Source: Spirochaetae bacterium HGW-Spirochaetae-1
GTDB taxonomy: Bacteria > Spirochaetota > UBA4802 > UBA5550
Direction of reading: 5' to 3'
NCBI GenBank assembly: GCA_002839375.1
Contig: PGXY01000002.1
Location: 473,037-537,036 of the forward strand
Length of the DNA stretch: 64,000 nucleotides
Below the pieces are notes generated by a model that did not search any database, was not told where the DNA came from, and saw only the letters and a list, made by a program, of their open reading frames with translations. Shown piece after piece: positions 1,271 through 49,425 of the stretch (position 1 is the stretch's first letter; the number at the start of each line of letters is the position of its first letter). Both the position numbers and the translations under genes were made by a program.

Positions 1271-1625
1271 ACCCTGTTTTTTATAATCGATTAAATAATG
1301 CAGCAACTTGATTTCAATCTAAGTTTGTTATAATAGAATTGCATATTACGAATATTCTGTGTCTTTCATTAAAATATAAATAATTTTGAACCGCCCGGCA
1401 AGGTTTATTTGAACAATTTATAAAAAAATGTCGGTTATGCTCTCTAATCGAGTCTTATGTCACGCAATGTTTATGTATATAGTGAACAAAGTTAATTTTA
1501 TTGTAAAGAACAAATCAATCTCTGATTAATCAGGAATTGCACTTGTATTGTTAAGACCTGCATGGTACTTTAAATGCAAACCGTCCGGAAGGACGGATAA
1601 TCACCTTCTTACAGGATATCCGTCA

Positions 1626-3773
1626 ATGAAAAAATCATCGGGGAACCTCTCGCATAAGAAAAGAAAATTAGTCATTGCTCTTATTATTCTTACCGCGGCA
1701 ATGTCAGCAACCTGTTATGAGAATGAAGACGTGACACCACGGATGACACAGAATTCTTCCGATGGCGGTGTCTCGGGAGAAGACGGTATTTACCTTGTTG
1801 GATCCGGCATATATGATATAACCGGTCCGGCTGCGGAAGTGGGGATGATGGGATTTGCCGTCATGGAGCAGAAGACCTCGGGCATACATATGAGGCTGCG
1901 GTCCCGTGCCTTTATCATAGGCGACGGAAATAAGCGCGTGGTTTTTGTCAGCACCGATACGGGCATGATGTTCCAGGCCGTAAAAATGAAAGTAGCGGAG
2001 AAATTGCAGAGCGATCCGGAACTGGGGAAGTATTATGATGAATCCAATGTATGCCTCTCGGCCATCCATACTCACAGCGGCCCCGGAGGGTATTCCCATT
2101 ACTTCATGTATAATGTCACCATACTTGGCTTCATAGAAGATAATTTCAATGTCATAGTCGAGGGGATTTATGAATCGATAAAACGAGCCCACAATAATCT
2201 CCAACCGGGAAAAATTCTCATCAACACAGGCACACTGGACAACTGCGGATGGCAGCGGTCTGACTTCGCTTATCAAAATAATCCCCAAAATGAAAGAGAC
2301 CTGTATAAAAGCAACACGGACACCAGTTTCACTCTCCTGAAACTGGTTACGCTTGAAGGCGAGGAAGTGGGGATGATTAACTGGTTTGCCGTGCATCCCA
2401 CCAATATAGGACCGGAAAATACCCTTATCAGCGGTGATAACAAGGGCTACGCCTCCTACCTCTTCGAAAGGGACAAGGGAACGGATTACCAGGCTGAAAG
2501 GACTTTCGTCGCAGCTTTTGCCCAGGCCAATGCCGGAGATATATCGCCCAACGTTCCTTACGGCCCGGCCCCCGACAGTATCGATTTTAAAACAAACACC
2601 GGGCTGCATGAGGTCACCATGCGTCAATATGAGAAGGCTGTGGCACTATACAATGGCGCAGCGGAGTATGTGAAGGGAAGCGTGGATTTCAGGCATGAGT
2701 ATAAAGATATGAGAACACTTTTCGTTGAAGAAAAAAACTGTGTTACCTGCGCAGCGGCAATGGGAGCCTCTTTTGCATCGGGCAGTCCCAGCGATAATCC
2801 GAGCCCGGCACCTCTTTTCCCTCCCGGTGTAACGCGCGACAGCATTGACTGGACTGAAGACGCAAAAACTGCATTCCTGGCGGAATTTTTCCCGGCTGTG
2901 CTGGGGATAATATGGCCCGACACCCTGGATGAGGCATATGTGGAATGTCATGAAGAGAAACCCATTCTTATTCCCACGGGGATCATGGCATTGAACCTGA
3001 AAAATATCCCCATGACTCCCCAGATCATGCCCGTGCAGGTTCTGAAAGTGGGAAGTCTTATTATTGCTGCGCAGCCCACGGAAGTAACAACCATGGCGGG
3101 GCGGCGGCTGAAATTCTCCGTTCTCGATGAAATGAAGGGAAGCGGTGTGAAATATGCCGTTGTGGCCGGTCTGGCCAATTCGTATGCATCATACATGGCA
3201 ACAAGGGAGGAGTATGCAATGCAATCTTATGCAGGAGCATGCACACAGTTCGGTCCCAATGAACTGGCGGCATTCCAGCAGGAATTCCGCAGACTCTGCG
3301 CTGCCATGAAAAAAGGTGAAAAAGTTGAGAAGGTTATTACTCCGCCAGATCTTTCCGGAGAGCAGCATAATTTTCTTCCCGGCGTTGTCTTCGATGATAA
3401 GCCTGTGGATGTTGAATACGGTGACACCGTAGTCGAGCCGGCCGCCGAATACAATATCGGCGATACGGTTGAGGCCGTGTTCTGGGGAGGGCATCTTCGT
3501 AATAATCCCATGATCCAAAAAACGTTTCTTGAAATAGTAAAAGTTGACGAACAGGGGAATGATCTGGCTGTCGTAGCCAGGGACTGGAATCCTGAAACGG
3601 AACTTCGATGGAAGAGGGACGGTATTGCCTACTCGAAAATTACCATTCGCTGGAGAACTGAAAATGCCTCGAGGGGGATGTATGTCATCCGGCATTACGG
3701 TTATGAAAAATCCGGTTGGACCGGTCGGATAAGCCCTTATGAAGGAGAAACGAAGCCGTTTACTTTACAGTGA
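1626..3773 (+). CDS. neutral/alkaline ceramidase (N-acylsphingosine amidohydrolase) with lipoprotein-like signal
   Basis: 741-aa ORF. The HTHSGPGGY motif and GIHMRLRSRAFIIGD region match the neutral ceramidase family, and the C-terminal domain is present. The likely start is the internal ATG at 1626 (MKKSSGN...LTAAMSATC, signal plus Cys). Confidence 0.8.
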   Translation: MKKSSGNLSHKKRKLVIALIILTAAMSATCYENEDVTPRMTQNSSDGGVSGEDGIYLVGSGIYDITGPAAEVGMMGFAVMEQKTSGIHMRLRSRAFIIGDGNKRVVFVSTDTGMMFQAVKMKVAEKLQSDPELGKYYDESNVCLSAIHTHSGPGGYSHYFMYNVTILGFIEDNFNVIVEGIYESIKRAHNNLQPGKILINTGTLDNCGWQRSDFAYQNNPQNERDLYKSNTDTSFTLLKLVTLEGEEVGMINWFAVHPTNIGPENTLISGDNKGYASYLFERDKGTDYQAERTFVAAFAQANAGDISPNVPYGPAPDSIDFKTNTGLHEVTMRQYEKAVALYNGAAEYVKGSVDFRHEYKDMRTLFVEEKNCVTCAAAMGASFASGSPSDNPSPAPLFPPGVTRDSIDWTEDAKTAFLAEFFPAVLGIIWPDTLDEAYVECHEEKPILIPTGIMALNLKNIPMTPQIMPVQVLKVGSLIIAAQPTEVTTMAGRRLKFSVLDEMKGSGVKYAVVAGLANSYASYMATREEYAMQSYAGACTQFGPNELAAFQQEFRRLCAAMKKGEKVEKVITPPDLSGEQHNFLPGVVFDDKPVDVEYGDTVVEPAAEYNIGDTVEAVFWGGHLRNNPMIQKTFLEIVKVDEQGNDLAVVARDWNPETELRWKRDGIAYSKITIRWRTENASRGMYVIRHYGYEKSGWTGRISPYEGETKPFTLQ

Positions 3774-4440: not shown

Positions 4441-7182
4441 TCAGTGGACTTTATCTGAAAGATGCGTGTTTCTCTCATTTATCTGCTTGTTGGGGATGAT
4501 GTCAGCTCTTTTTTTCAGAAGATGTATGTTAAGGGTAAGAAGGTATTCGTGGATCATAGAGTGTATTCCTGCCAGATTTGACGGCTCCACAACCTTCAGT
4601 ATTTTTTCTTTTTTCCCCGACGATGTTTCAATAAGCATTTTACTTTTTATCAGATAATTCAACGCATTGCTGTAGTTTGCTATGGATAGAGATTCGGGAA
4701 GTTTAATCTCCTCCATGTGATACATCTGAACGCCCTTTTTACGTATAAGGTTTATGAGCTCCTTCTTTTCAGTCTTTGATGAAAGCGGGAGCAGGGTTGA
4801 AAAGGCAATGTAATATGATTCAAGATAATCCTGGATGATGGAGGCGTTGTTGCGAAGTTCAACGAATTTATTATCATGTATCTTCACCTCATCACCTTGC
4901 ATGGAAATCATCTTTTCATTCTGGAGAAATTGCAATGAGTTTCTGAATACTAATCCGGCATCTTCATCACCACGGTTAATAAACTCCATGGAAAAGAGTG
5001 ACCGGAGAGAGAGGAATATTTTTTCAATATCTCCAGCGGGAACTGATTCCCTTTCGCTGCACATAAGAACTGCCAGTGATGCATACGATAACGGGTACAG
5101 GTGATTGATTATTGTGTTTTTGTAAAAGTTAATTTTTGGTCTGTCCTCTTCATCGAGAAGATAAATATTTTCCATACTGTTCTTATCCGGCGTATTGCGG
5201 TCATCCCTGATATCGCTGATGATCCCGTCATTCATGAACTTATCAAGTATAGAATCCAGCTGTGCCGCTATGCTGTCCTGAGTTTGCAATTCTTTTGCCA
5301 GAGGAGCCTTGATTTCTGAAAAATATTGAACAAGATGAGTTATCCTGCCCAGCAGTGCTTCCTTCTGAAAACCCCGGCCAGGAGAGGAGAGCAGGGCCGT
5401 TGACACAATGGGAACGGGCATCGCCATGGCTATCTCGCTGATTTTCACCATGAGGTGATCGGCGATTTCACTAACGTCCTCTCCTGTTGTATCGTATTGT
5501 TTTTTAAGATCGCTATAATAAATGGGATCGTTGAATGAAAGATATACCTTTCCGTAATTTCTTTTCAGGAGGCCACGGCTTTTAACAAAATTGGAGGTTG
5601 ATTCGGATTTTTTTTCCTTTCCCTTGAGTTCCTTATGGTACGAATTTTCTTCAAGAATGCGGTTGTAATTTATTGTGGTGGGAACAAAAACCATGTCGCT
5701 GGCGTATCCCTCTTCGATGGCCTCTATCATGTATTTGAGTATTCCCATCTTGGGAGTGAGCAGCTTGCCTGAGCGGGTCCTTCCGCCCTCAGCGAAGAAT
5801 TCAATACTGTATCCTTCGCTGACAAGGGTCTTTATATACTGCTTAAGTATGGTTGTGTAGAGCTTCATGCCCTTGAAGGAACGGCGCATAAAAAAGGCCC
5901 CGGATTTGCGGAAGATGAGACCCATGGGGAAAAAAGTCAGGTTTGCACCTGCCACGATATGCGGGGGGATCATCTTTTCCCTGTAGAATATGCTGGATAC
6001 AATGAGATAGTCCATGTGGCTTTTATGGCTCGGGGCTATTACCACAGGACCCTTGCGGGATGCTTCCCTAATTTTTTTTATATCCTCGATGTCATATTCT
6101 ATTCCGTCGAAGATTTTCCTGAATATGAAGCGCAATGTCTTCTCGAAATATTTTATCGTAATGATGGAAAAGTCGGCAGCTATCTCATCAAAATATTTAT
6201 ATGCGTTGCGGCGCAGTTTTTTCTCAGAGAGACCTTCATCTTTCATGAGAAGCTGAATGGTATCAAGCGTATTTGAATGATAGAGAACCTGCTCCATCAT
6301 CTCCTGTCTTGATTTTATGACCGGACCCAGTATCGAACGTTTTTCATAGTCATATGTTTCCAGAAGCCTGCTGCGAATTTCCCGTGTGAGATGTTTTATG
6401 TCATCATGACCGGCAAGTTCAATTTCTTCTTTGAGGTTGATGGGAGAGGCTATCCTGACAAAGGCAGGGGTTATGCTTTTCCACATGGCGAAGAGGCCTG
6501 AGAAGAGACCCCTGTCTCCCGTTGCCCGCATTTCCATGAATGTTCTTTTTGCTTTTGTTTTTTCAGGGTTCCGGTTCCAGAAGATAATCTGGGGAAAAAT
6601 AAAAATCGGTTCTTCAATATTCTTCTGAATGCTGAGAAGATATTCAAGAGTGTCGGGCCTCTCTTTCAGATAGTTGCTGATGAAGAGCTTTTGCGATAGA
6701 AGTGCTATGAGGATGCTGTGGCCGGATTGTACTACATCTTTTATATACTCTTCGTCGGAAATGTGTGTCCTGTCAACATCACTGAAGATATCTTTGATGA
6801 AGAGATATATCCGATTGAAGAGGCCGGTGACCATTTGAAGAAGGTAGGGCGAATTCCCCAGGGCCAGTTCAGGTGTATCAAAGCCGTGGCGTCTCAGGAT
6901 GTTGTTGAGGATCAGTGTGGAAGTGATGGAGCTCTGGAACGAGCCGAATACGACGCGGCCTTTCTTGGAGTATTCTTTCAGAATAGAAAGACCTTCGTTG
7001 CCAAAATCCACTTTTCGGAAGAGCAGGTGGATTATTCTTTCGATGATGATATTTGAGCGCCTGTTAATGATGCCCTGTTGTATAAATGTGGAAACATTCA
7101 TGTCGCTTTTTCTCATTCTTGTACCCTGTTGTTCTCGATTATTTTCACCCGCCTGATGCGGATATTTGTAGCGAACTGACAT
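4441..7182 (-). CDS. plsB: glycerol-3-phosphate O-acyltransferase PlsB
   Basis: 913 aa. The acyltransferase block I VIAPSHKSHMDYL (HX4D), GAFFMRR and FAEGGRTRSGKLL align along the length with E. coli PlsB. The start is uncertain because the N-terminus is about 75 aa longer than E. coli. Confidence 0.85.
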   Translation of the reverse strand: MSVRYKYPHQAGENNREQQGTRMRKSDMNVSTFIQQGIINRRSNIIIERIIHLLFRKVDFGNEGLSILKEYSKKGRVVFGSFQSSITSTLILNNILRRHGFDTPELALGNSPYLLQMVTGLFNRIYLFIKDIFSDVDRTHISDEEYIKDVVQSGHSILIALLSQKLFISNYLKERPDTLEYLLSIQKNIEEPIFIFPQIIFWNRNPEKTKAKRTFMEMRATGDRGLFSGLFAMWKSITPAFVRIASPINLKEEIELAGHDDIKHLTREIRSRLLETYDYEKRSILGPVIKSRQEMMEQVLYHSNTLDTIQLLMKDEGLSEKKLRRNAYKYFDEIAADFSIITIKYFEKTLRFIFRKIFDGIEYDIEDIKKIREASRKGPVVIAPSHKSHMDYLIVSSIFYREKMIPPHIVAGANLTFFPMGLIFRKSGAFFMRRSFKGMKLYTTILKQYIKTLVSEGYSIEFFAEGGRTRSGKLLTPKMGILKYMIEAIEEGYASDMVFVPTTINYNRILEENSYHKELKGKEKKSESTSNFVKSRGLLKRNYGKVYLSFNDPIYYSDLKKQYDTTGEDVSEIADHLMVKISEIAMAMPVPIVSTALLSSPGRGFQKEALLGRITHLVQYFSEIKAPLAKELQTQDSIAAQLDSILDKFMNDGIISDIRDDRNTPDKNSMENIYLLDEEDRPKINFYKNTIINHLYPLSYASLAVLMCSERESVPAGDIEKIFLSLRSLFSMEFINRGDEDAGLVFRNSLQFLQNEKMISMQGDEVKIHDNKFVELRNNASIIQDYLESYYIAFSTLLPLSSKTEKKELINLIRKKGVQMYHMEEIKLPESLSIANYSNALNYLIKSKMLIETSSGKKEKILKVVEPSNLAGIHSMIHEYLLTLNIHLLKKRADIIPNKQINERNTHLSDKVH

Positions 7183-13875: not shown

Positions 13876-15039
13876 GTGACCAAATCAAAACACAGGCATG
13901 ATCTCAATGAGGACAACGGGAAAAACGTCGACAGCATTGAGACCAGTTACAATGAATCGATAGTCCGATACTATCGGCACGTCCTGAGAAAACAGGATGA
14001 ACAGGTCCTGAAAAAAATACAGAAAATTCCCGATGACTGGGATGAGTATGATAAAACACGTCTTATATCTGACCCGGAAATTTCCGAGGATGAAAAAAAG
14101 CGGCTGTCCGATATCAAATCTAAAAAGGCCTGGGAACTGAAATTTGAAAGTCTGAATATATATTACCTGATTACTATTGAAAACACCATGATATCATGCC
14201 TCACCCATAAAATTCTCACCGATGATGAAATACATGAAGCGCAGGATTCCGTGAACAGCATCATCACGGAGATCGGCGGAAATATTAAAAATTTCAAACA
14301 TCTGCTGCTGAGCCTGGCCAAGAGGGCTGTCAGCGATCTTTATTATCTCATGATGACATTCCGTAAGTACTATTACAAACTCAATGTTGTTTTCGATGAA
14401 GATTTTCTACGATTTTGCGATGATCTCATCACTTTCTTTGATGAATACAGGGTCATGACCAGGAATATTTCCGGTTTTAAAAAGACCAGAGAATTCCTGT
14501 CCAGGTTTTTCCCCGTGAGTGCGAATAAACGGGGATGGAACATCGATGAGACGGCATTGAAGGAGTTCTTCGAAGAGGAAATAAAAGATGAGGCCAGGAC
14601 TCTCGCTGAATTAAAGAGAACCATATCTGCCGCCTACCTGTATAAGAAGAAGCAGAAAAAAGATTATGAATTTATAAAATATTATTATAATGAGCGAGAC
14701 GGGAAACTATTCAGGTATAATTTTGTTGTGAATTCCCTTTCTCAGAAATTGATAGACCAGAAGATCTCAGCCGATGTCTTCGAAGGATTTAAAAAGATCA
14801 GGGAAAATTTCATAAACCTGGTAAGGAATTTTGAAAACCGTGGCCTCCAGGGATTCGGTTCTCCCGATCTTTCTTATGGACAGCTGGTTGAGTTTATTTT
14901 TAAAGGGAGCCTGGTTCTCGAGTATTATTATCTTCGTACGCTACAGCATGACGAACTTCAGAAATTCCGAAACGATGTGCTTCATTACGTGGAGGAGGAA
15001 TATAATCAACTCAATCCCGATGCCGGGCGTTTTCGTTAA
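13876..15039 (+). CDS. hypothetical protein (387 aa, highly charged, K/E/D/Y-rich, no recognisable domain)
   Basis: Long ORF with protein-like composition and no convincing antisense alternative. Confidence 0.5.
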   Translation: MTKSKHRHDLNEDNGKNVDSIETSYNESIVRYYRHVLRKQDEQVLKKIQKIPDDWDEYDKTRLISDPEISEDEKKRLSDIKSKKAWELKFESLNIYYLITIENTMISCLTHKILTDDEIHEAQDSVNSIITEIGGNIKNFKHLLLSLAKRAVSDLYYLMMTFRKYYYKLNVVFDEDFLRFCDDLITFFDEYRVMTRNISGFKKTREFLSRFFPVSANKRGWNIDETALKEFFEEEIKDEARTLAELKRTISAAYLYKKKQKKDYEFIKYYYNERDGKLFRYNFVVNSLSQKLIDQKISADVFEGFKKIRENFINLVRNFENRGLQGFGSPDLSYGQLVEFIFKGSLVLEYYYLRTLQHDELQKFRNDVLHYVEEEYNQLNPDAGRFR

Positions 15040-37951: not shown

Positions 37952-39448
37952 ATGAACTCAAAACCTGAAGAGACTCCGCAAATAAAAAACAGAAATTTAT
38001 TCTTCTCAGTTATTTCTTTATTCGCCCTCATCCTGGTGCCTCTGTTTATCCTTTTTACGATCATGTATGCCGTGCTCACGAGTAGTTTGCCGTATGTAAG
38101 CCTTCTGAAAAATGCCAGGCTCGTGGAAACATTTATCCATGCAAAAAACTGGCAGATGGAGGAGCAGATAAAAGAAGAGATTGAACAGAAAGTTCATCTG
38201 GAAGAATATAAGGTCGAGTTTAAAAGAATAAAAGCTGATTACGATAGTAAACAGGCCCATGTGAATGCAATACAAAAAGTCACGGAATATGACACACTGA
38301 AAAAACAGAGGAAGGAACTGGCCCGCCTTTCCTGGAAAAAGGCTCCCGGGATATTCAATAACGAAAATGAATTTAAGCAATATAAGGATGATGAACTGCA
38401 GCAATTGGATATAAAGATTGATGCAATTGAAAAGTATCGCGATCAGAATGAAGATGAAATTGAACGTGCCCGGGATGAATTTTCCGATGCGGAAGACGCC
38501 TTTGATGATGCCATGGATACCATGGAGGATAAGGAAGAGGAGGCGCAGGACATCATCAAGTCTCATAAAAACAGCTTCATGGGGAAGATATATTCCGATA
38601 TAGAGATCATCAGCCCGCCGCTCACCGAGGAATTAAACCAAAGGTTTATATCGGTGCCGGTTAAAAGGGAAATTGAAAAGTTTCTCTATTTCATGACCCA
38701 TTATGAAAAACAGGTCGAGAATGGCAACGTGTATCGCGATGGGCTCAATCTTTCCGGTCAGGGCTTGCAGGATACATTGAAAGTACGGATTCCGGGTTTT
38801 GAGATAAGCCTGTGGGTTGAGGACGAGAAAAACGGGATCCCGCAGAAAAGGCATCTGCTGAGTGAAGTTTTCGTTGATAAAATAGATGAACTCGAAAACC
38901 TGAAAAATAGAACACTGCTTGCAAATCTTTTCAGATTTTCCGACTCAGGACTGGCCGAGAGATTCAGTCGCTCCTATTTAAAAAAAGCCCGCTTAACGAT
39001 TGACAACGGAATCATTGCCATGGAAAAGATCGAACTTTCGGGAACAAGCGCTGAAAAGATGGAAGTATTAATGAAAGTATTGACGTGGGGGAAATATGCC
39101 GCTGTGGGACTACCTGTATTAGCACTGTGTATGATTCTTTTCATTATTTTTTCATCCGCAGAGAGAGAAAGAAAGATTCGTAGTTTGAAAAGAATTTTCA
39201 TTTATCCAGGTGTTTTAATGATTGGTCTTGGTGTAATTATGGCAGGCATGGCCTTCAACATCAATAATATTCTCCCCGATTTATTTGCGAGTCCTTTCGT
39301 TCAGATATATATGAAGAGAATATTTCTGCTAGCCACGCTGCACGTCTGGGGACCGGTTGTTGCGGTATTTGTTGTTCTGGCAATCACCGGTTCTTTCTTA
39401 AAAACAGGAATTAGCGAAAATGAGAATAAATCATCTGCCGTCGATTGA
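37952..39448 (+). CDS. hypothetical membrane protein with central coiled-coil and highly acidic segment
   Basis: An N-terminal TM helix, then about 200 aa of heptad-like charged sequence (DAEDAFDDAMDTMEDKEEEAQD), then 3 C-terminal TM helices. Confidence 0.5.
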   Translation: MNSKPEETPQIKNRNLFFSVISLFALILVPLFILFTIMYAVLTSSLPYVSLLKNARLVETFIHAKNWQMEEQIKEEIEQKVHLEEYKVEFKRIKADYDSKQAHVNAIQKVTEYDTLKKQRKELARLSWKKAPGIFNNENEFKQYKDDELQQLDIKIDAIEKYRDQNEDEIERARDEFSDAEDAFDDAMDTMEDKEEEAQDIIKSHKNSFMGKIYSDIEIISPPLTEELNQRFISVPVKREIEKFLYFMTHYEKQVENGNVYRDGLNLSGQGLQDTLKVRIPGFEISLWVEDEKNGIPQKRHLLSEVFVDKIDELENLKNRTLLANLFRFSDSGLAERFSRSYLKKARLTIDNGIIAMEKIELSGTSAEKMEVLMKVLTWGKYAAVGLPVLALCMILFIIFSSAERERKIRSLKRIFIYPGVLMIGLGVIMAGMAFNINNILPDLFASPFVQIYMKRIFLLATLHVWGPVVAVFVVLAITGSFLKTGISENENKSSAVD

Positions 39449-44027: not shown

Positions 44028-44209
44028 AACAGGATGTGTTCACCACTAAACATGAAAGTGATGATGTCAAGAATAATAGCACGAAAGAATCTGTAAATAT
44101 TTCAATTGAATAAAAAAATTTTTGACGTAATTGAATGCATGGGATATGAATGATTCCCGGGAATTGTTTATCAGGAAAAAGCATTGTATTCCCGTATAAA
44201 AGGTGCACA

Positions 44210-47200
44210 GTGAAATTTATCACGGATTTTCACATTCATTCCCATTTTTCCATTGCAACCAGCAGGAGGCTCATTCCCGAGTACCTGGAATTGTGGGCAC
44301 GCATCAAGGGTATAAATGTGCTGGGGACCGGTGATTGCATTCACCCCGGCTGGCTTAAAGAATTGAGAGATAAACTTGAACCGGCTGGAAACGGTTTTTA
44401 CCGGCTCAAAGACCAGTATCGGCTTCATGAGTCAAAAGCACTGGCATCGTCCATTCTGCCCGGCGACATATATTTTATGCTTACCGGTGAAATCAGCAGT
44501 ATTTATAAAAAGGACGGTCGTGTACGGAAAGTACATAACGTATGCGTATTTTCCGACTTTAATTCGGCACTGGCAGTTCAGGCCAGGCTGGACAAACTGG
44601 GAAACATAACATCGGACGGACGGCCCATCCTGGGTCTCGATTCAAAAATACTTCTGGATATGGTGCTGAACGCCTCACAGACCTCTTTCCTTATACCCGC
44701 CCATATCTGGACCCCGTGGTTTTCCGTTCTGGGGTCGAAGTCGGGATTCGACCGGCTTGAGGAATGCTATGAGGATCTCACCGGCAATATTTTTGCCGTA
44801 GAAACCGGACTCTCGTCGGACCCTGCCATGAACTGGACATGTTCGTTTCTCGACAGGTTCAAACTCGTATCAAATTCCGATGCCCATTCTCCGGACAAGC
44901 TGGGTCGTGAAGCGAATTTATTCGACTGCGAACAGAGTTATCGCGGCGTGTATGATGCTCTCAGGGGAGACAGCGGATTTGAGGGAACGATCGAGTTCTA
45001 TCCCCAGGAGGGAAAGTATCACTATGACGGACATCGGAAATGCGGGATATGCTGGGACCCCCTGGAGACCATAAAACACAGGGGGATATGTCCGGTCTGC
45101 GGCCGGGAGGTAACGAAGGGAGTCCTCTACCGAATGGCGGAACTTGCTGACCGGACCGATATATCCACGGCGTCGGAGAAAAGAATGTATTACAGCATTA
45201 CACAGCTTTCCGATCTCATTGCCGAAATACTTAACATTAAAAACAGCGGCGCTCAGGCGGTACAGAGGGAGTATTTCAACCTGATACGGTCCACAGGTTC
45301 GGAATTTTACTGTCTGCTTTTTGCCGATATTGAAGAGATACGGGAAAACAGCTCTGAAATCATGGCGGAAGGAATTGCCAGGATACGTCGTGGTGAAGTT
45401 ATCATCGAAGAAGGATTCGACGGTGAATTCGGCAGAATCCGCGTGTTCCGGAAAGGAGAAAATGAAATGTTCGAGGGACGTGGTCTTTTCCCGGCCAGCC
45501 TTCCTGAACATGTCGGTAAAGCAGAGGCATATCCCGATCAGTGGTCTGTAAAATTTGATATATCGGCCTTCAAAGCCCTTGCTCCCATGAGAAACATTTC
45601 TGAATACATACCGGTGACCGATGGAAAAAAACTCGAAAGTCAACCGGCAGACTCGTTTACCGAAGAGCAGCGTATGGGGATACGGCACGGCAGCGGTCCC
45701 TGCATGGTTATTGCCGGTCCCGGTTCAGGAAAAACAAGGATACTCACGGAGAGGATATCCCGCCTTATTAAAAGCGGCGAGGCTCATCCTGAGAATGTCC
45801 TTGCTGTTACATTCACCAACAATGCCGCCCGGGAAATTCGGGACAGGCTGAGGAAATCACTGGATCCCCCCTATCCTGAAATTATGACATTCCATTCTCT
45901 GGGTCTGTCAATTTTAAGGAAGCACTGTTCACGTTTTAATCGGGACGCCGGTTTTGACGTAATTGACGGAAAGAGGACAGAGCAGATAATCAATACAATC
46001 TGCGGGAATAAAAGAGAGACCGGCAAAATAATAAGCGGCATAAGCAGATACAAACAGGGTATTACCGATGATATCAATTCGGCCGACATCCTCGATGAAT
46101 ATGAAAAGGAGTTGATTAAGAGGAACTCCTTTGATCTCGATGATCTTATTCATCTGCCGGTCCTGCTCCTGTCGGAAGATGAAGACGTCTGCGCAAAATA
46201 CAGAAACAGGTACCAGTGGCTTCTCATAGACGAATACCAGGACATAAACCGGCGGCAATACCAAATGGTTCGCCTCCTGACCCATGGAGAAAATCCCAAT
46301 ATATTTGTGATCGGCGATCCGGACCAGGCAATCTATGGATTCCGCGGCTCCGATATCCGGTTCATCCGTTCCTTCAGTGAGGATTTTCCCTCGTCTCGGA
46401 CTCTGCGTCTTTCCAGGAGTTTCCGTTGTCCCGATGCAGTGCTTGCGGCAGCTTCCCAGGCAATCGGATCAACACAGGTCATGACCGGTGAACGCGGTGG
46501 AATTAAAATCCAGATACAATCGGTTCCGACGGAAAAGAGCGAGGCAGAATGGATCGCTTCAACAATCGAAGCCATGATTGGCGGTGTCAGAAGCTTCTCC
46601 ATGGACAGCGGCGTCAGTGACGGGTATTCCATTGATGGCGATAGCGGTTTTTCCGACTTTGCCGTTCTGTGTCGTTCGTCGTTGTTATTCGAACCGATTG
46701 TCGAAGCCTTCGGCAACCATGGCATCCCCTGTCAGCAAATAGGCCCGGACCCCTTTTACTTTAATGAACCCTATTACGGAACGATACGGCTGCTTCATCA
46801 TGCCTATTATAAAAATACAGGAAGTGATTTTCCCGATGAAATTGTAAAAGAAATCAGCTTGCTGATTGATAACGAGAAGGACATGCTTACCGTCACGGAA
46901 ACGGCTTTACGACGAAGAGATGCGTCTGCAGAAGAGATTAAAAAATTCAATCGCTTCTGCAGCAGGTATGAAAACTATACGGATTTGTTTCAGGCCCTGG
47001 CGATCAGGAACGGGGTTGATGACCTGGATATAACAGCCGATGCCGTTTTTATCATGACAATACATGCCGCCAAGGGCCTGGAGTTCAATCATGTTTTTAT
47101 TCCCGGCTGCGAGGAAGGAATAATTCCTTTTACGATCTTCGGCGGCAGGGAACAAGAAGAACTTCTTGAAGAAGAACGACTGTTTTATGTGGGAGCCACA

Positions 47201-47371
47201 AGGACAAAAAGAAATCTTTTTCTGTCCCACGCCCATGTCCGGCATATAAAAGGTCGTGTTCTGAAACAGCCGGCCACCAGATTTTTAAAAAAAATTGAAC
47301 TTGACTTGTTGAATTTTAATGAAAGAATATTTTTTAAAAAAGAAGATGAGCAGCAACTGGAGCTGTTCTGA
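44210..47371 (+). CDS. fusion protein: N-terminal PHP-family phosphoesterase with Zn-ribbon (COG1379-like) + C-terminal UvrD/PcrA-type SF1 helicase
   Basis: The PHP motif I FITDFHIHSHFS sits at the N-terminus. A Zn-ribbon follows at residues 430-460 (CGICWD...CPVCGRE). The helicase core (from about aa 510) has Walker A (AGPGSGKTRIL), motif II (DEYQD), motif III (GDPDQAIYGFRG) and motif VI (VGATRTKRNL). The probable start is the GTG at 44210, preceded by AAGGTG; the ORF-track start is 44150. Confidence 0.75.
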   Translation: MKFITDFHIHSHFSIATSRRLIPEYLELWARIKGINVLGTGDCIHPGWLKELRDKLEPAGNGFYRLKDQYRLHESKALASSILPGDIYFMLTGEISSIYKKDGRVRKVHNVCVFSDFNSALAVQARLDKLGNITSDGRPILGLDSKILLDMVLNASQTSFLIPAHIWTPWFSVLGSKSGFDRLEECYEDLTGNIFAVETGLSSDPAMNWTCSFLDRFKLVSNSDAHSPDKLGREANLFDCEQSYRGVYDALRGDSGFEGTIEFYPQEGKYHYDGHRKCGICWDPLETIKHRGICPVCGREVTKGVLYRMAELADRTDISTASEKRMYYSITQLSDLIAEILNIKNSGAQAVQREYFNLIRSTGSEFYCLLFADIEEIRENSSEIMAEGIARIRRGEVIIEEGFDGEFGRIRVFRKGENEMFEGRGLFPASLPEHVGKAEAYPDQWSVKFDISAFKALAPMRNISEYIPVTDGKKLESQPADSFTEEQRMGIRHGSGPCMVIAGPGSGKTRILTERISRLIKSGEAHPENVLAVTFTNNAAREIRDRLRKSLDPPYPEIMTFHSLGLSILRKHCSRFNRDAGFDVIDGKRTEQIINTICGNKRETGKIISGISRYKQGITDDINSADILDEYEKELIKRNSFDLDDLIHLPVLLLSEDEDVCAKYRNRYQWLLIDEYQDINRRQYQMVRLLTHGENPNIFVIGDPDQAIYGFRGSDIRFIRSFSEDFPSSRTLRLSRSFRCPDAVLAAASQAIGSTQVMTGERGGIKIQIQSVPTEKSEAEWIASTIEAMIGGVRSFSMDSGVSDGYSIDGDSGFSDFAVLCRSSLLFEPIVEAFGNHGIPCQQIGPDPFYFNEPYYGTIRLLHHAYYKNTGSDFPDEIVKEISLLIDNEKDMLTVTETALRRRDASAEEIKKFNRFCSRYENYTDLFQALAIRNGVDDLDITADAVFIMTIHAAKGLEFNHVFIPGCEEGIIPFTIFGGREQEELLEEERLFYVGATRTKRNLFLSHAHVRHIKGRVLKQPATRFLKKIELDLLNFNERIFFKKEDEQQLELF

Positions 47372-47392: not shown

Positions 47393-48958
47393 GTGCGTTA
47401 CATGAAATTATTCGGGGCATTTATAATGATTACGGCATCCCTTCTTTTCGAAGGGTGCAGCAAGGATATAATGACGGAAAAAGAAGGCAATAACTCCTTC
47501 TCAACGGCAAATCCCCTGGTGCTGCAAAAACCGGTCCAGGGATTTCTTGATACTGCCGAAGACATTGATTTATACTCTTTTTCAGTCGATAACCTGTCGA
47601 CATTGGATATCCGCCTTTCGGGAATAAAGGGAGTGAACAATGCTTTTTCAGTCTGGAAAGGCGGTGATCAGCCGGTACTTATGAAGCTGGTTGATGACAA
47701 CAGAAAATCTTCCCCGGAAAGAATGGCCAATTTCTGCGCTGAGCCCGGGATGTATTATATCTCAGTACAGCATGGAGACCGTGACCGTAAAAGGGGCGCT
47801 ACGGATTCTTCCTATACTCTCACCGTAGACTACCGCGATTCCCTCAGCGAAGAGATCGAGCCAAATGATAATCGAATGCAGGCTACCCCGCTGACCATGA
47901 ACAGCGAGATAACGGGATATTTCAGCCCCGCTTACAACAGGCTCAATGAACAAGGCAATCCGCCATTCCGGGAAGAGGACTGGTATTCGATACAGGTGGA
48001 ACTTGACGGGGAGAAACCGCTTTTACTCGACGTGGTGCTATCCGAAGTTCCTGGAGTTAACTCCATCATCAGCTTTTTCGGAGAAAATACTGAACCTATC
48101 GCTGTGACAGATTATAATGCCACGGGAATGGCGGAAGAAATAAAGGGTATGGGTATTACCGTTTCGGGAACATATTATATCATGATCACCTCCAGGGGAT
48201 ATCAGGTTCAGGATGAGAAGCCCTATTATCTGAATGTGTCCTCGCGTGAATACGACTCAACTCATGAACTGGAACCGAACAATAGCCGGGAGAATGCCAA
48301 TACAATCGGTAATAATTCCATCTACGCAAGGTTTAATACGCCTGACGATCGGGATTTTTTCCGGTACGAGGGCAGCGCTGTTGCAGGCGTTTACCGCATT
48401 GAAGTTCAGCCCGACGAGACAAGTGATGTTGTACTGGCTATATACACGCAGAAGGGGAAACGTTTGATCGAGATAAATAACGCACCGGCGGGCGGGAAAG
48501 AAATATATCCCAATCTGAGCATCAGGAATGAATTTTATTGCGAGGTCTATTCCAAGTCTCCTGTTCCTACCGCATCAAATGAATACACTCTGCTTGTGGA
48601 ACCCCTGGAGAATATCAGGAATATGGAAAACGAGCCCAATGACAGTAAAGAATCAGCTACTCTTATCATCGATGATTCTCTCCGGGGCTACATAAGCAGG
48701 AAAGATGACAGGGATTATCTCCTGGTTCAGTATGATTCCAGGAGAAGAGTGGAGTTTGAGATCAGGGGCGTTAAAGATGGTGTCATTAAGGTTTCAGTTA
48801 CCGATCCCCTGGGATATATTTTAAAGTCCGTGAAGGTTGTCGGTGATTCAGTACAAACACTTACTGAAATGATAGACAGAAAGGGATATCTCATCATTGA
48901 ACCTGAGCAGGCAAATTATGAAAATCCCTATGAAATAAATCTGCGAGGGCATAAATAA
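47393..48958 (+). CDS. lipoprotein with four tandem PPC-like (pre-peptidase C-terminal-like) beta-sandwich repeats
   Basis: Signal plus lipobox MKLFGAFIMITASLLFEGC. There are four repeats of about 110 aa, each opening with E-x-E-P-N-(D/N)-S...A..I and carrying D-x-D-(Y/F)-(Y/F/L) (EIEPNDNRMQA, ELEPNNSRENA, ENEPNDSKESA, EGNNSFSTANP). Confidence 0.6.
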   Translation: MRYMKLFGAFIMITASLLFEGCSKDIMTEKEGNNSFSTANPLVLQKPVQGFLDTAEDIDLYSFSVDNLSTLDIRLSGIKGVNNAFSVWKGGDQPVLMKLVDDNRKSSPERMANFCAEPGMYYISVQHGDRDRKRGATDSSYTLTVDYRDSLSEEIEPNDNRMQATPLTMNSEITGYFSPAYNRLNEQGNPPFREEDWYSIQVELDGEKPLLLDVVLSEVPGVNSIISFFGENTEPIAVTDYNATGMAEEIKGMGITVSGTYYIMITSRGYQVQDEKPYYLNVSSREYDSTHELEPNNSRENANTIGNNSIYARFNTPDDRDFFRYEGSAVAGVYRIEVQPDETSDVVLAIYTQKGKRLIEINNAPAGGKEIYPNLSIRNEFYCEVYSKSPVPTASNEYTLLVEPLENIRNMENEPNDSKESATLIIDDSLRGYISRKDDRDYLLVQYDSRRRVEFEIRGVKDGVIKVSVTDPLGYILKSVKVVGDSVQTLTEMIDRKGYLIIEPEQANYENPYEINLRGHK

Positions 48959-49425
48959 TGAAAAGGTTTTATGGATATAGTATACTGTTGTTTTTCTCTA
49001 TGATTGTGTTGCTGACCGCCTGTAAGACACCACCCGGTATTGATGGCCAGGGGGGCGATATTATCCAGCCCGGGGCTTACAATGTAAAATTCATCGCCCT
49101 TGACAGGAGTATTACTGATCCAGCCATGGACAGACGCACGTATTATAAGGTATTTATAGACAAGGTGGAGTCGGGAAGGACCACGACAGGCCTGGAATCG
49201 CAGGAAAAATCCTTTGAAACAACACTGAGCAGCAATCGTCATCTTCTCATGGTGGAAAAATGGATTCTTGATGAAAAAAAGGGTCAGTATATAAAACTTA
49301 ACAATATAGAACAGCCGAAACCCAACTATATCTATTTTAGCGCTTCGGCCAACAGGATTATCACAATTGTCATGGAAACGGATAGCGAGGGAAAGGCGCG
49401 TTTTATTGTTGATTTTGGTAATTGA
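48958..49425 (+). CDS. hypothetical lipoprotein (155 aa)
   Basis: MKRFYGYSILLFFSMIVLLTAC lipobox. It overlaps the previous stop (TAATG). Confidence 0.5.
   Translation: MKRFYGYSILLFFSMIVLLTACKTPPGIDGQGGDIIQPGAYNVKFIALDRSITDPAMDRRTYYKVFIDKVESGRTTTGLESQEKSFETTLSSNRHLLMVEKWILDEKKGQYIKLNNIEQPKPNYIYFSASANRIITIVMETDSEGKARFIVDFGN

Follow-up and report, generated by a model that had tools for sequence, protein, structure and literature searches.

The window analysed here, a stretch of 64,000 nucleotides, holds at positions 44150-47371 of the forward strand (as are all features given below) a single uninterrupted open reading frame of 1073 amino acids followed by a TGA stop. It encodes a fusion of an Endonuclease Q (EndoQ) with a UvrD-type helicase, and it is a real and intact gene, as the sequence-only reading of this DNA had taken it to be, with 120 full-length homologues of 48-91% identity. 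The start can be refined: residue 21 is the first residue in 114 of the 120 homologues, and it is a GTG codon (44210-44212) with an SD-like AAAGGTG just upstream. Because of both features the first 20 codons are probably untranslated, and GTG 44210 is a more likely start than 44150, giving a protein of 1053 amino acids; residue numbers in this text nevertheless follow the long frame from 44150. An Rfam scan of the window gave no match, and promoter and terminator consensus scans around the gene scored no better than shuffled sequences. The surrounding genes are trpA, trpB, pepA, dnaG, rpoD and two lipoprotein genes, in agreement with the earlier description of pepA, trpBA and lipoprotein neighbours, and the same synteny is found in a 91%-identical relative. 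The frames directly downstream, 47393-48958 and 48958-49425, were considered as possible partners and rejected: both encode lipoproteins whose conservation does not extend beyond the close relative.

By alignment and fold, residues ~21-440 are a complete EndoQ, formed by PHP catalytic, Zn-binding and helical DNA-binding domains. Residues 26-432 match PfuEndoQ (5zb8/7k30; phmmer E 7e-41) in an alignment that extends to Pfu residue 382, and in Foldseek the model of this half superimposes on 5zb8 with a TMt of 0.88 (rmsd 2.7 Å, ~420 columns). The hypothetical equivalog model TIGR00375 is matched as well (E 5e-37), at 128.1 bits, below its cut-off of 326.6 bits. These matches bear out the proposal that the N-terminus is a PHP plus Zn-ribbon region of the COG1379/TIGR00375 family, which later work identified as Endonuclease Q, a lesion-specific enzyme that nicks immediately 5' of dU, dI, dX and AP sites (PMC4357722, PMC5961232).

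The PHP-fold catalytic domain (residues 21-284; 44210-45001) includes the PHP motif noticed earlier, FITDFHIHSHFS, at residues 23-34. The metal ligands of PfuEndoQ, H8, H10, E76, H84, H139, D193 and H195, align with H28, H30, E114, H129, H185, D244 and H246, which do not vary among the sequences covering these positions (114-121 of 121). The predicted lesion pocket is formed by G220-L221-S222 and the predicted wedge by W190; H185, G220, S222 and W190 are kept in 121/121 sequences, and their Pfu counterparts, H139, G169, S171 and the intercalating Trp144, are needed for catalysis and base selection according to mutagenesis or structure (PMC5961232, PMC8307549). The Zn-binding domain (residues 285-351; 45002-45202) does contain the CxxC...CxxC pattern previously described (C298, C301, C314, C317), but only 45 of 121 sequences have C301. 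The tetrad that is conserved, and predicted to bind Zn, is H295/C298/C314/C317 (HxxC...CxxC), which aligns with Pfu C249/C252/C268/C271, so that the first ligand of the fusion is a His and not the Cys of EndoQ. The C-terminal helical DNA-binding domain (residues 352-440; 45203-45469) is assigned from the PfuEndoQ alignment and from homologue records, on which it is annotated as Pfam MJ0043_C (PF27218). The fusion thus carries the same three-domain module as the known EndoQs (PfuEndoQ and TkoEndoQ, PF1551/TK0887; PDB 5ZB8, 7K30-33; and those of Bacillus pumilus and B. subtilis), at ~28% identity and with the metal ligands and pocket residues all conserved. From these intact catalytic and pocket residues we infer that the EndoQ half would nick DNA specifically at lesions. 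A 3'-5' exonuclease, as first envisaged, fits poorly with the retention of all catalytic and base-pocket residues of an enzyme that is a lesion-specific endonuclease (PMC4357722, PMC5961232).

Between the two halves lies a linker (residues 441-500; 45470-45649) that is poorly conserved (0.2 in block 451-500) and predicted to be disordered (pLDDT <50). It holds a conserved (S/G)-L-F motif (GRGLF, 45476-45490), of which the L and F are at least 90% conserved, followed by a conserved S-V-K-F-D (45545-45559). Residues ~501-1055 are, judging from profiles, motifs and fold, a complete SF1A UvrD/PcrA-type helicase whose 2B subdomain is short and which lacks the C-terminal Tudor domain. This core (residues 501-1055; 45650-47314) matches Pfam UvrD-helicase (PF00580, E 3.7e-69) and UvrD_C (PF13361, E 1.6e-29) as well as the PcrA sequence 1pjr (E 2e-69), and in Foldseek it matches 4c30_A with a TMt of 0.75, PcrA and UvrD ranging from 0.66 to 0.75. 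Walker A and motifs II, III and VI are present as originally reported, in a full set comprising motif Q (Q507), I (GPGSGKT, 523-529), Ia, II (DEYQD, 694-698), III (GDPDQ, 722-726), IV (R759), V (G976, E978) and VI (VGATR, 1014-1018, with R1018), and the motif residues are invariant among the homologues. From this family membership, 3'->5' translocation and unwinding may be expected.

The protein shares all helicase motifs and the 1A/1B/2A fold with UvrD, PcrA and Rep (TMt 0.72-0.75), and the four-subdomain fold 1A/1B/2A/2B is present by Foldseek, but several features set it apart from them. The 2B subdomain, recognised by a gap in the PcrA alignment (residues ~867-956; 46748-47017), has about 90-100 amino acids, roughly half of the ~170 found in UvrD, Rep and PcrA. 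The Tudor-like RNAP-binding domain is absent, since the alignment stops at PcrA 647/724 with 18 query residues remaining, and its place is taken by a putative clamp-binding tail. In addition, the helicase contains a family-specific loop, GGVRSFSMDSGVSDG (GGVRSFSMDSG.., residues 811-825; 46580-46624), where G811, G812 and S817 are conserved in 121/121 sequences, G825 in 120/121, and R814, S815, F816, S820 and G821 in 115-119 of 121; the pLDDT of this region is low (model residues 794-805). How the helicase relates to UvrD, PcrA, Rep and AddA was assessed from fold matches and profile scores; it reaches 336 bits with the PcrA equivalog model (cut-off 911), 252 bits with that of UvrD (965-1144) and 297 bits with that of Rep (951). 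As these scores and that of TIGR00375 all lie below the curated cut-offs, each half of EndoQ-UvrD appears to belong to a clade of its own. In the AF2 model, which has a pTM of 0.60 and a disordered linker, the inter-domain geometry is unreliable.

The extreme C-terminus carries a predicted β sliding-clamp-binding motif, QLELF (residues 1069-1073; 47354-47368), in a tail predicted to be disordered (pLDDT <50). The consensus for such motifs is QL[SD]LF (cited in PMC4858679). A Q[LM]x[LM]F sequence lies within the last 10 amino acids of 107 of the 120 homologues and occurs only once in the remaining 124,915 residues, and the motif is also present in 43 of 50 complete fused frames from species genomes. 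We regard the tail as a candidate docking site for the β clamp. A sliding-clamp motif is common to EndoQ and the fusion, archaeal EndoQ binding PCNA through a C-terminal PIP box and being stimulated by it (PMC4858679), whereas the fusion has QLxLF, shifted to the end of the helicase that, with the disordered linker, adds ~630 residues to the EndoQ module.

Species genomes that carry the fused form number at least 600 and span more than 12 bacterial phyla, including Spirochaetota, Bacteroidota, Desulfobacterota, Chloroflexota, Planctomycetota and Omnitrophota; after clustering at 50%, the best 150 representatives also have the fusion. At six loci the gene is split into adjacent EndoQ and helicase genes on the same strand. 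In these split pairs both products end in QLxLF, that of EndoQ at the position of the linker GRGLF, and in Planctomycetales and Omnitrophota the split helicases lack almost all of the 2B segment. The N-terminal region thus matches its expected family, the fusion is conserved and its parts stay adjacent when separated, in line with what the sequence-only reading required. Such conservation, sometimes as adjacent genes, is Rosetta-stone evidence suggesting that EndoQ incision is coupled to UvrD-type unwinding and to the clamp. Stand-alone EndoQs without a helicase within 8 kb also exist in some close relatives (L005, L016, L023, L038, L062), nested among the fused ones, which indicates that the helicase is not obligatory for EndoQ function.

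In our view, the protein is probably a single-chain, clamp-tethered excision-repair enzyme that nicks and unwinds DNA at uracil, hypoxanthine and AP sites. The substrate range, helicase polarity, tracked strand and order of events in this proposal are drawn from homologues. The tail would dock the protein on a β clamp remaining on DNA where replication or repair synthesis takes place or has passed, by analogy with the tethering of archaeal EndoQ to PCNA through its PIP box. The EndoQ module would then flip out the lesion, be it uracil, hypoxanthine, xanthine or an AP site, and cut the phosphodiester on its immediate 5' side, so that one end has a 3'-OH and the other a 5'-phosphate bearing the lesion, with the covalently attached helicase thereby positioned at the nick. 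Because SF1A helicases move 3'->5', a helicase tracking the intact strand would peel off the lesion-bearing 5' end, as UvrD does from a MutH nick 5' of a mismatch or from the 5' incision of UvrC. Unwinding may also release EndoQ from its tightly bound nicked product, after which the displaced strand would be removed by a 5' flap nuclease or a 5'-3' exonuclease, the 3'-OH extended by a clamp-bound polymerase and the nick sealed by ligase. The 2B domain is autoinhibitory in Rep and UvrD, and its shortening here would suit a helicase acting as a tethered monomer. A helicase removal step after EndoQ had been sketched by its discoverers (PMC4357722 Fig. 10).

The logic resembles that of UvrD acting with MutH in mismatch repair or with UvrC in nucleotide excision repair, in which a damage-directed nick is followed by helicase removal of the strand, except that nicking enzyme and helicase here share a single polypeptide chain. 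This seems a better analogy than DNA-end resection. AddAB, RecBCD and AdnAB likewise have a nuclease covalently attached to an SF1A motor, but theirs is a C-terminal PD-(D/E)xK domain, whereas the nuclease of the fusion is an N-terminal PHP domain whose chemistry would be a lesion-specific nick instead of end resection, and there is no partner subunit.

A related alternative is that the helicase only assists EndoQ, by moving it along DNA, by opening duplex at forks or R-loops for cutting of uracil or hypoxanthine in ssDNA, or by simply stripping it from its product, with Pol I strand displacement doing the rest. PfuEndoQ remains on its nicked product (PMC5961232), and EndoQ cuts both ssDNA and dsDNA and stays on the product (PMC8307549), which would suit such a role, as would the closeness to the fork or replisome suggested by the clamp motif; the stand-alone EndoQs among the fused ones imply that incision alone can suffice. 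We nevertheless consider this unlikely, since nicks are where UvrD-family helicases are classically known to enter DNA in mismatch and nucleotide excision repair, and strand displacement is the simplest role for a helicase fused at a fresh nick.

It is less probable still that the protein is a single-gene anti-phage or anti-plasmid effector, whether related to Wukong or restricting phages with dU-DNA. Wukong is a CRISPR-supervised defence protein of ~1026 amino acids, encoded in type I-C loci between cas3 and cas5c, and in it an N-terminal PHP exonuclease is followed by a C-terminal ATPase; it degrades many DNA substrates as a non-specific DNase and is cytotoxic when derepressed (bioRxiv 10.1101/2024.12.27.630466). 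The fusion is superficially similar to this architecture, from which it is set apart, on Wukong's description only, by its housekeeping context and clamp motif. An antiviral role has also been suggested for Bacillus EndoQ (PMC8307549), and in PADLOC the helicase half scores against the GajB and DRT-helicase (RTasHel) models. These scores were rejected as a defence assignment, being generic UvrD matches, while the EndoQ half matches nothing; the cognate Gabija or DRT effectors (the GajA OLD nuclease, a reverse transcriptase) are absent next door, both at this locus and in 81 loci compared. Clustering of the neighbourhoods of these 81 loci gave no recurrent neighbour, the recurrent clusters being shadow frames inside the gene itself, and those common to 4-6 loci are generic (ABC transporter, SDR, response regulator, DXP synthase, LeuRS). 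No recurrent cas or defence gene was seen among them. A search of 50,697 phage records for EndoQ-like sequences gave no match, and the plasmid search gave only one, a stand-alone EndoQ on a 733-kb Brevibacillus replicon (megaplasmid), beside a NUDIX gene. Moreover, conserved β-clamp motifs typically occur in proteins of replication and repair, and a conserved lesion-selective pocket argues against an indiscriminate DNase. The trpBA, pepA, dnaG and rpoD neighbours, in a synteny shared with the 91%-identical relative, favour repair over defence, as had been proposed.

The idea of a functional analogue of AddA/RecB/AdnB, with a PHP exonuclease resecting double-strand breaks, appears very improbable: some PHP domains are known 3'-5' exonucleases, and AddA, RecB and AdnB are among the weaker sequence and fold matches through the shared SF1A core, but the N-terminal half is specifically EndoQ, including its Zn-binding and helical domains and base-flipping pocket, no RecB-family PD-(D/E)xK domain is matched in Pfam in a protein that ends 18 residues past the helicase core with a β-clamp tail, no AddB/RecC/AdnA-like partner gene lies nearby, and the addA and recB models score only 132-134 bits against cut-offs of ~700.

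We thus think it likely that the fusion is an uncharacterised and very widespread bacterial repair enzyme, neither an end-chewing nor an anti-phage nuclease. EndoQ was found in 2015 in hyperthermophilic archaea, and the downstream step, 'removal by helicase activity', was only sketched (PMC4357722); if the nick-and-unwind proposal is true, the fusion would show that incision by EndoQ is followed by a helicase step, in a pathway present in more than 12 phyla, cultivable species included. We are evenly divided on the broader claim that EndoQ-UvrD forms the core of a major glycosylase-independent bacterial pathway removing uracil, hypoxanthine and AP sites, in which one clamp-tethered polypeptide both incises and unwinds. 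In the literature that we searched, we found no description of the EndoQ-UvrD fusion or of its helicase, nor a measurement of the activity of any fused member. The picture given there, of an enzyme that is mainly archaeal and in bacteria restricted to 'limited groups', does not hold, as the bacterial fused form is very widespread. EndoQ is already a reagent for dU detection, so its coupling to a helicase could have practical interest. A 2016 supplement already listed long, clamp-motif-bearing EndoQ homologues from bacteria, with the cultured hosts Geobacter metallireducens, Zymomonas mobilis, Desulfovibrio vulgaris and Rhodothermus marinus, which makes the idea directly testable. Public records call these proteins only 'UvrD-helicase domain-containing protein', a name that hides the nuclease.

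The gene under study is a single uninterrupted open reading frame in the window (44150..47371, + strand, 1073 codons plus TGA), and the motifs quoted in the sequence-only reading were all found in it: the PHP-domain motif FITDFHIHSHFS (residues 23-34), CGIC (298-301), CPVCG (314-318), GPGSGKT (523-529), DEYQD (694-698), GDPDQ (722-726) and VGATR (1014-1018). Since 114 of the 120 homologues begin at query residue 21, and a GTG at 44210 (+) has the Shine-Dalgarno-like AAAGGTG just 5' of it, the annotated ATG is probably 60 nt too far upstream, which would make the protein 1053 aa long. Residue numbers here follow the 1073-aa frame.

The N-terminal half has no significant match in Pfam, and the NCBIfam model TIGR00375 covers residues 125-430 (E 5e-37, 128 bits) below its cut-off of 326.6 bits. 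When residues 1-500 were compared with solved structures using phmmer, they matched Endonuclease Q of Pyrococcus furiosus (PfuEndoQ, PDB 5zb8 and 7k30, E 7e-41), with an alignment unbroken from query residue 26 to 432. An AlphaFold2 model, obtained from a 60-sequence alignment (mean pLDDT 82.8), places this half onto 5zb8 with a target TM-score of 0.88 and an rmsd of 2.7 Å. The metal ligands of PfuEndoQ are H8, H10, E76, H84, H139, D193 and H195, while H139, G169 and S171 keep T and A out of the pocket, and W144 is the proposed wedge (PMC5961232, PMC8307549). By alignment, the corresponding query residues are H28, H30, E114, H129, H185, D244 and H246 for the metals, H185, G220 and S222 for the pocket and W190 for the wedge, all invariant in those of the 120 homologues that cover each position. 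Given these matches in sequence, fold and active site, the COG1379/TIGR00375 family of PHP and zinc proteins, in which the sequence-only reading had placed this half, is the family now called EndoQ. The placement holds, whereas the exonuclease chemistry proposed for the PHP domain has to be abandoned, as EndoQ is not an exonuclease and incises directly 5' of dU, dI, dX and AP sites (PMC4357722). The helical domain is Pfam PF27218 ('MJ0043_C'), as recorded on homologues. Both pairs of the proposed CxxC...CxxC Zn-ribbon are present, but Cys301 is not conserved (found in 45 of 121 sequences, with R, V or K in most homologues), and the invariant tetrad is instead H295, C298, C314 and C317 (window 45032-45100, residues 295-317). 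The bacterial clade of the query thus has an HxxC...CxxC site, in contrast to the C4 site of archaeal EndoQ.

The C-terminal half, residues 501-1055, is an SF1A helicase. Pfam UvrD-helicase (E 3.7e-69), UvrD_C and AAA_19 match residues 504-1027, the closest solved relative is PcrA (1pjr, E 2e-69), its fold matches those of UvrD and PcrA (TMt up to 0.72-0.75), and the helicase motif residues are all invariant among homologues, bearing out the earlier description of a complete UvrD/PcrA-type helicase. The identity of the protein's parts is close to certain. Judged by its NCBIfam equivalog scores for PcrA, UvrD and Rep (336, 252 and 297 bits, where the cut-offs exceed 900), the helicase is not an orthologue of any of the three. 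In the PcrA alignment the 2B subdomain region is about half the usual length. This alignment stops at residue 647 of the 724 in PcrA, and as the query continues for just 18 residues beyond that point, it lacks the C-terminal Tudor-like domain. A 15-residue loop, GGVRSFSMDSGVSDG (window 46580-46624, residues 811-825), predicted to be disordered in the model, varies hardly at all across the fused family; the split helicases of Omnitrophota retain part of it, and those of Planctomycetales have a shortened form.

Scanned against a single genome for each GTDB species, the EndoQ-domain alignment matched at least 600 stretches, all confirmed by tblastn. The best 80 of these loci belong to Spirochaetota, Elusimicrobiota, Margulisbacteria, Bacteroidota, Fibrobacterota, Cloacimonadota, Chloroflexota (Caldilineae), Planctomycetota, Desulfobacterota (including Desulfovibrio), Omnitrophota, KSB1, Aminicenantes and Patescibacteria. 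Taking Walker A and motif II within one ORF as the criterion for fusion (products of ~800-1200 aa), 49 of the 65 loci with a complete ORF are fused, and two more (L064 and L065) are likewise fused with a variant motif II. EndoQ stands alone (408-455 aa) at 13 loci, six of which, one deltaproteobacterial, two from Omnitrophota and three from Planctomycetales, have a helicase gene directly after it on the same strand; at five others no helicase was found within 8 kb. The fusion is conserved, and at the six split loci the EndoQ and helicase genes remain neighbours. Against the helicase profile of the fusion, the six split-locus helicases reach 369-616 bits. Those of L040, L057 and L059 (Planctomycetales) and L069 and L076 (Omnitrophota), with 369-435 bits and 484-513 aa, lack almost the whole 2B segment and are, for this reason, natural 'delta-2B' UvrD-type helicases. 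A rough NJ tree places the stand-alone and split forms within groups of fused ones, so that fission or loss has occurred on several occasions. A profile search of 1.84 billion representatives gave 4269 EndoQ-like proteins (1209 at E<=1e-30), and nearly all of the best 150 are 950-1370 aa long.

The last residues of the protein are QLELF, in a tail that is disordered in the AlphaFold2 model. Q[LM]x[LM]F lies within the final 10 residues of 107 of the 120 homologues and occurs only once in their other 124,915 residues; it is also present in 43 of 50 complete fused ORFs from the species genomes, the remaining seven having near-variants. The consensus for bacterial beta-clamp binding is QL[SD]LF, and in archaeal EndoQ a PIP box at the C-terminus mediates binding to PCNA (KD 55 nM), by which the enzyme is stimulated (both in PMC4858679). 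In split pairs QLxLF ends both products, except for the L040 EndoQ, in which QLSLW is internal; at the five delta-2B loci every helicase has QLxLF or QMxLF at its C-terminus, and in four of them so has the EndoQ encoded upstream. The disordered linker of the fusion (residues 441-500) contains (S/G)-L-F, at least 90% conserved among homologues, precisely at the position at which stand-alone EndoQ in split loci ends with QLxLF, and it may be a vestigial or second clamp site.

The gene lies among trpA, trpB, pepA (divergent), two lipoprotein genes, a DUF4015 gene, dnaG and rpoD, an order identical in a 91%-identical relative on contigs of 248 kb and 92 kb, and elsewhere the window holds the usual housekeeping genes of an anaerobe (e.g. 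pta-ackA, a PFL-like glycyl-radical enzyme and a class II aaRS). When the flanks of 81 loci were clustered, no neighbour recurred and the small clusters consisted of generic families; together with the housekeeping neighbours, this upholds the preference for repair over defence already expressed in the sequence-only reading. PADLOC matches are confined to the generic UvrD half. No EndoQ-like sequence was found in 50,697 phage records, and the only match in 72,556 plasmids is a stand-alone 'endonuclease Q family protein' on a 733-kb replicon of Brevibacillus laterosporus (L081; NZ_CP011075.1, 494548-495729), which is encoded in housekeeping surroundings directly after a NUDIX hydrolase gene and ends in ...KVMEEKGE, without QLxLF.

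We consider it likely that the protein is a clamp-tethered repair enzyme that nicks at deaminated bases or AP sites and then unwinds. The tail would tether it to the beta clamp, the EndoQ module would nick 5' of the lesion, and the attached 3'->5' helicase, moving on the intact strand, would peel off the lesion-bearing 5'-phosphate strand, leaving a 5' nuclease, a polymerase and a ligase to complete the repair. The same logic is seen with UvrD, which unwinds from the MutH nick 5' of a mismatch or from the UvrC 5' incision. In Rep and UvrD the 2B domain exerts autoinhibition, so that its shortening here fits a helicase working as a tethered monomer. In their own scheme, the discoverers of EndoQ included a step of 'removal by helicase activity' (PMC4357722 Fig. 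10), which matches this mechanism. PfuEndoQ remains on nicked DNA (PMC5961232), and unwinding would also release EndoQ from its product; that the motor assists only search or turnover, with no strand excision, seems to us unlikely. Still less probable is a defence effector such as Wukong, a protein of ~1026 aa that combines a PHP exonuclease with a C-terminal ATPase, degrades many DNA substrates, is toxic on derepression and is found inside type I-C cas operons (preprint 10.1101/2024.12.27.630466). Judged against the published description of Wukong, EndoQ-UvrD is unlikely to be its equivalent, given the housekeeping surroundings, the lack of cas genes next to its loci, the clamp motif and a lesion-selective pocket that is conserved. 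The end processor analogous to AddA/RecB/AdnB that had been proposed earlier is very improbable, because the nuclease half is EndoQ, neither an exonuclease nor a nuclease of the RecB type, and a partner subunit is lacking; of that proposal, the domain calls and the leaning to repair survive.

Both domain families and the 'nick then UvrD' logic are already known. In the EndoQ literature the enzyme still counts as a mainly archaeal one that is shared by 'some limited groups' of bacteria (PMC6202378), and NCBI names the long bacterial homologues 'UvrD-helicase domain-containing protein'. Shiraishi et al. 2016 (Supplementary Fig. S1) list ~34 bacterial 'EndoQ homologs' with the clamp motif at 941-1244, including those of Geobacter metallireducens, Zymomonas mobilis, Rhodothermus marinus, Caldilinea aerophila, Desulfovibrio vulgaris and Treponema azotonutricium, and their lengths and terminal motifs agree with the loci found here. 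Nowhere in the literature searched, that paper included, is the extension called a helicase or an activity reported for these proteins. The EndoQ-UvrD family, of which the gene in the window is an ordinary member, is thus built of familiar parts and already half-noticed in literature and databases, and represents a widespread, testable repair architecture that bears on an open question about the EndoQ pathway.

The two lipoprotein genes (47393-48958 and 48958-49425) start 22 nt past the stop codon of the fusion gene; both products have a signal peptide and a Cys lipobox and find conserved counterparts in the 91%-identical relative alone, and the first has about four internal repeats starting 'EPN(D/N)' and a faint PPC-domain signal. 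For two further ORFs, 13876-15039 (387 aa) and 37952-39448 (498 aa), Pfam gave no match at E<=1e-5; the second of them is conserved at the syntenic locus (L082) of the close relative. Elsewhere in the window, a full-length homologue of neutral/alkaline ceramidase (1548-3773; Pfam Ceramidase_alk, E 1.6e-158) adjoins a GPAT-like acyltransferase gene (4441-7182), a pair that points to a possible metabolism of sphingolipids or unusual lipids in this organism.
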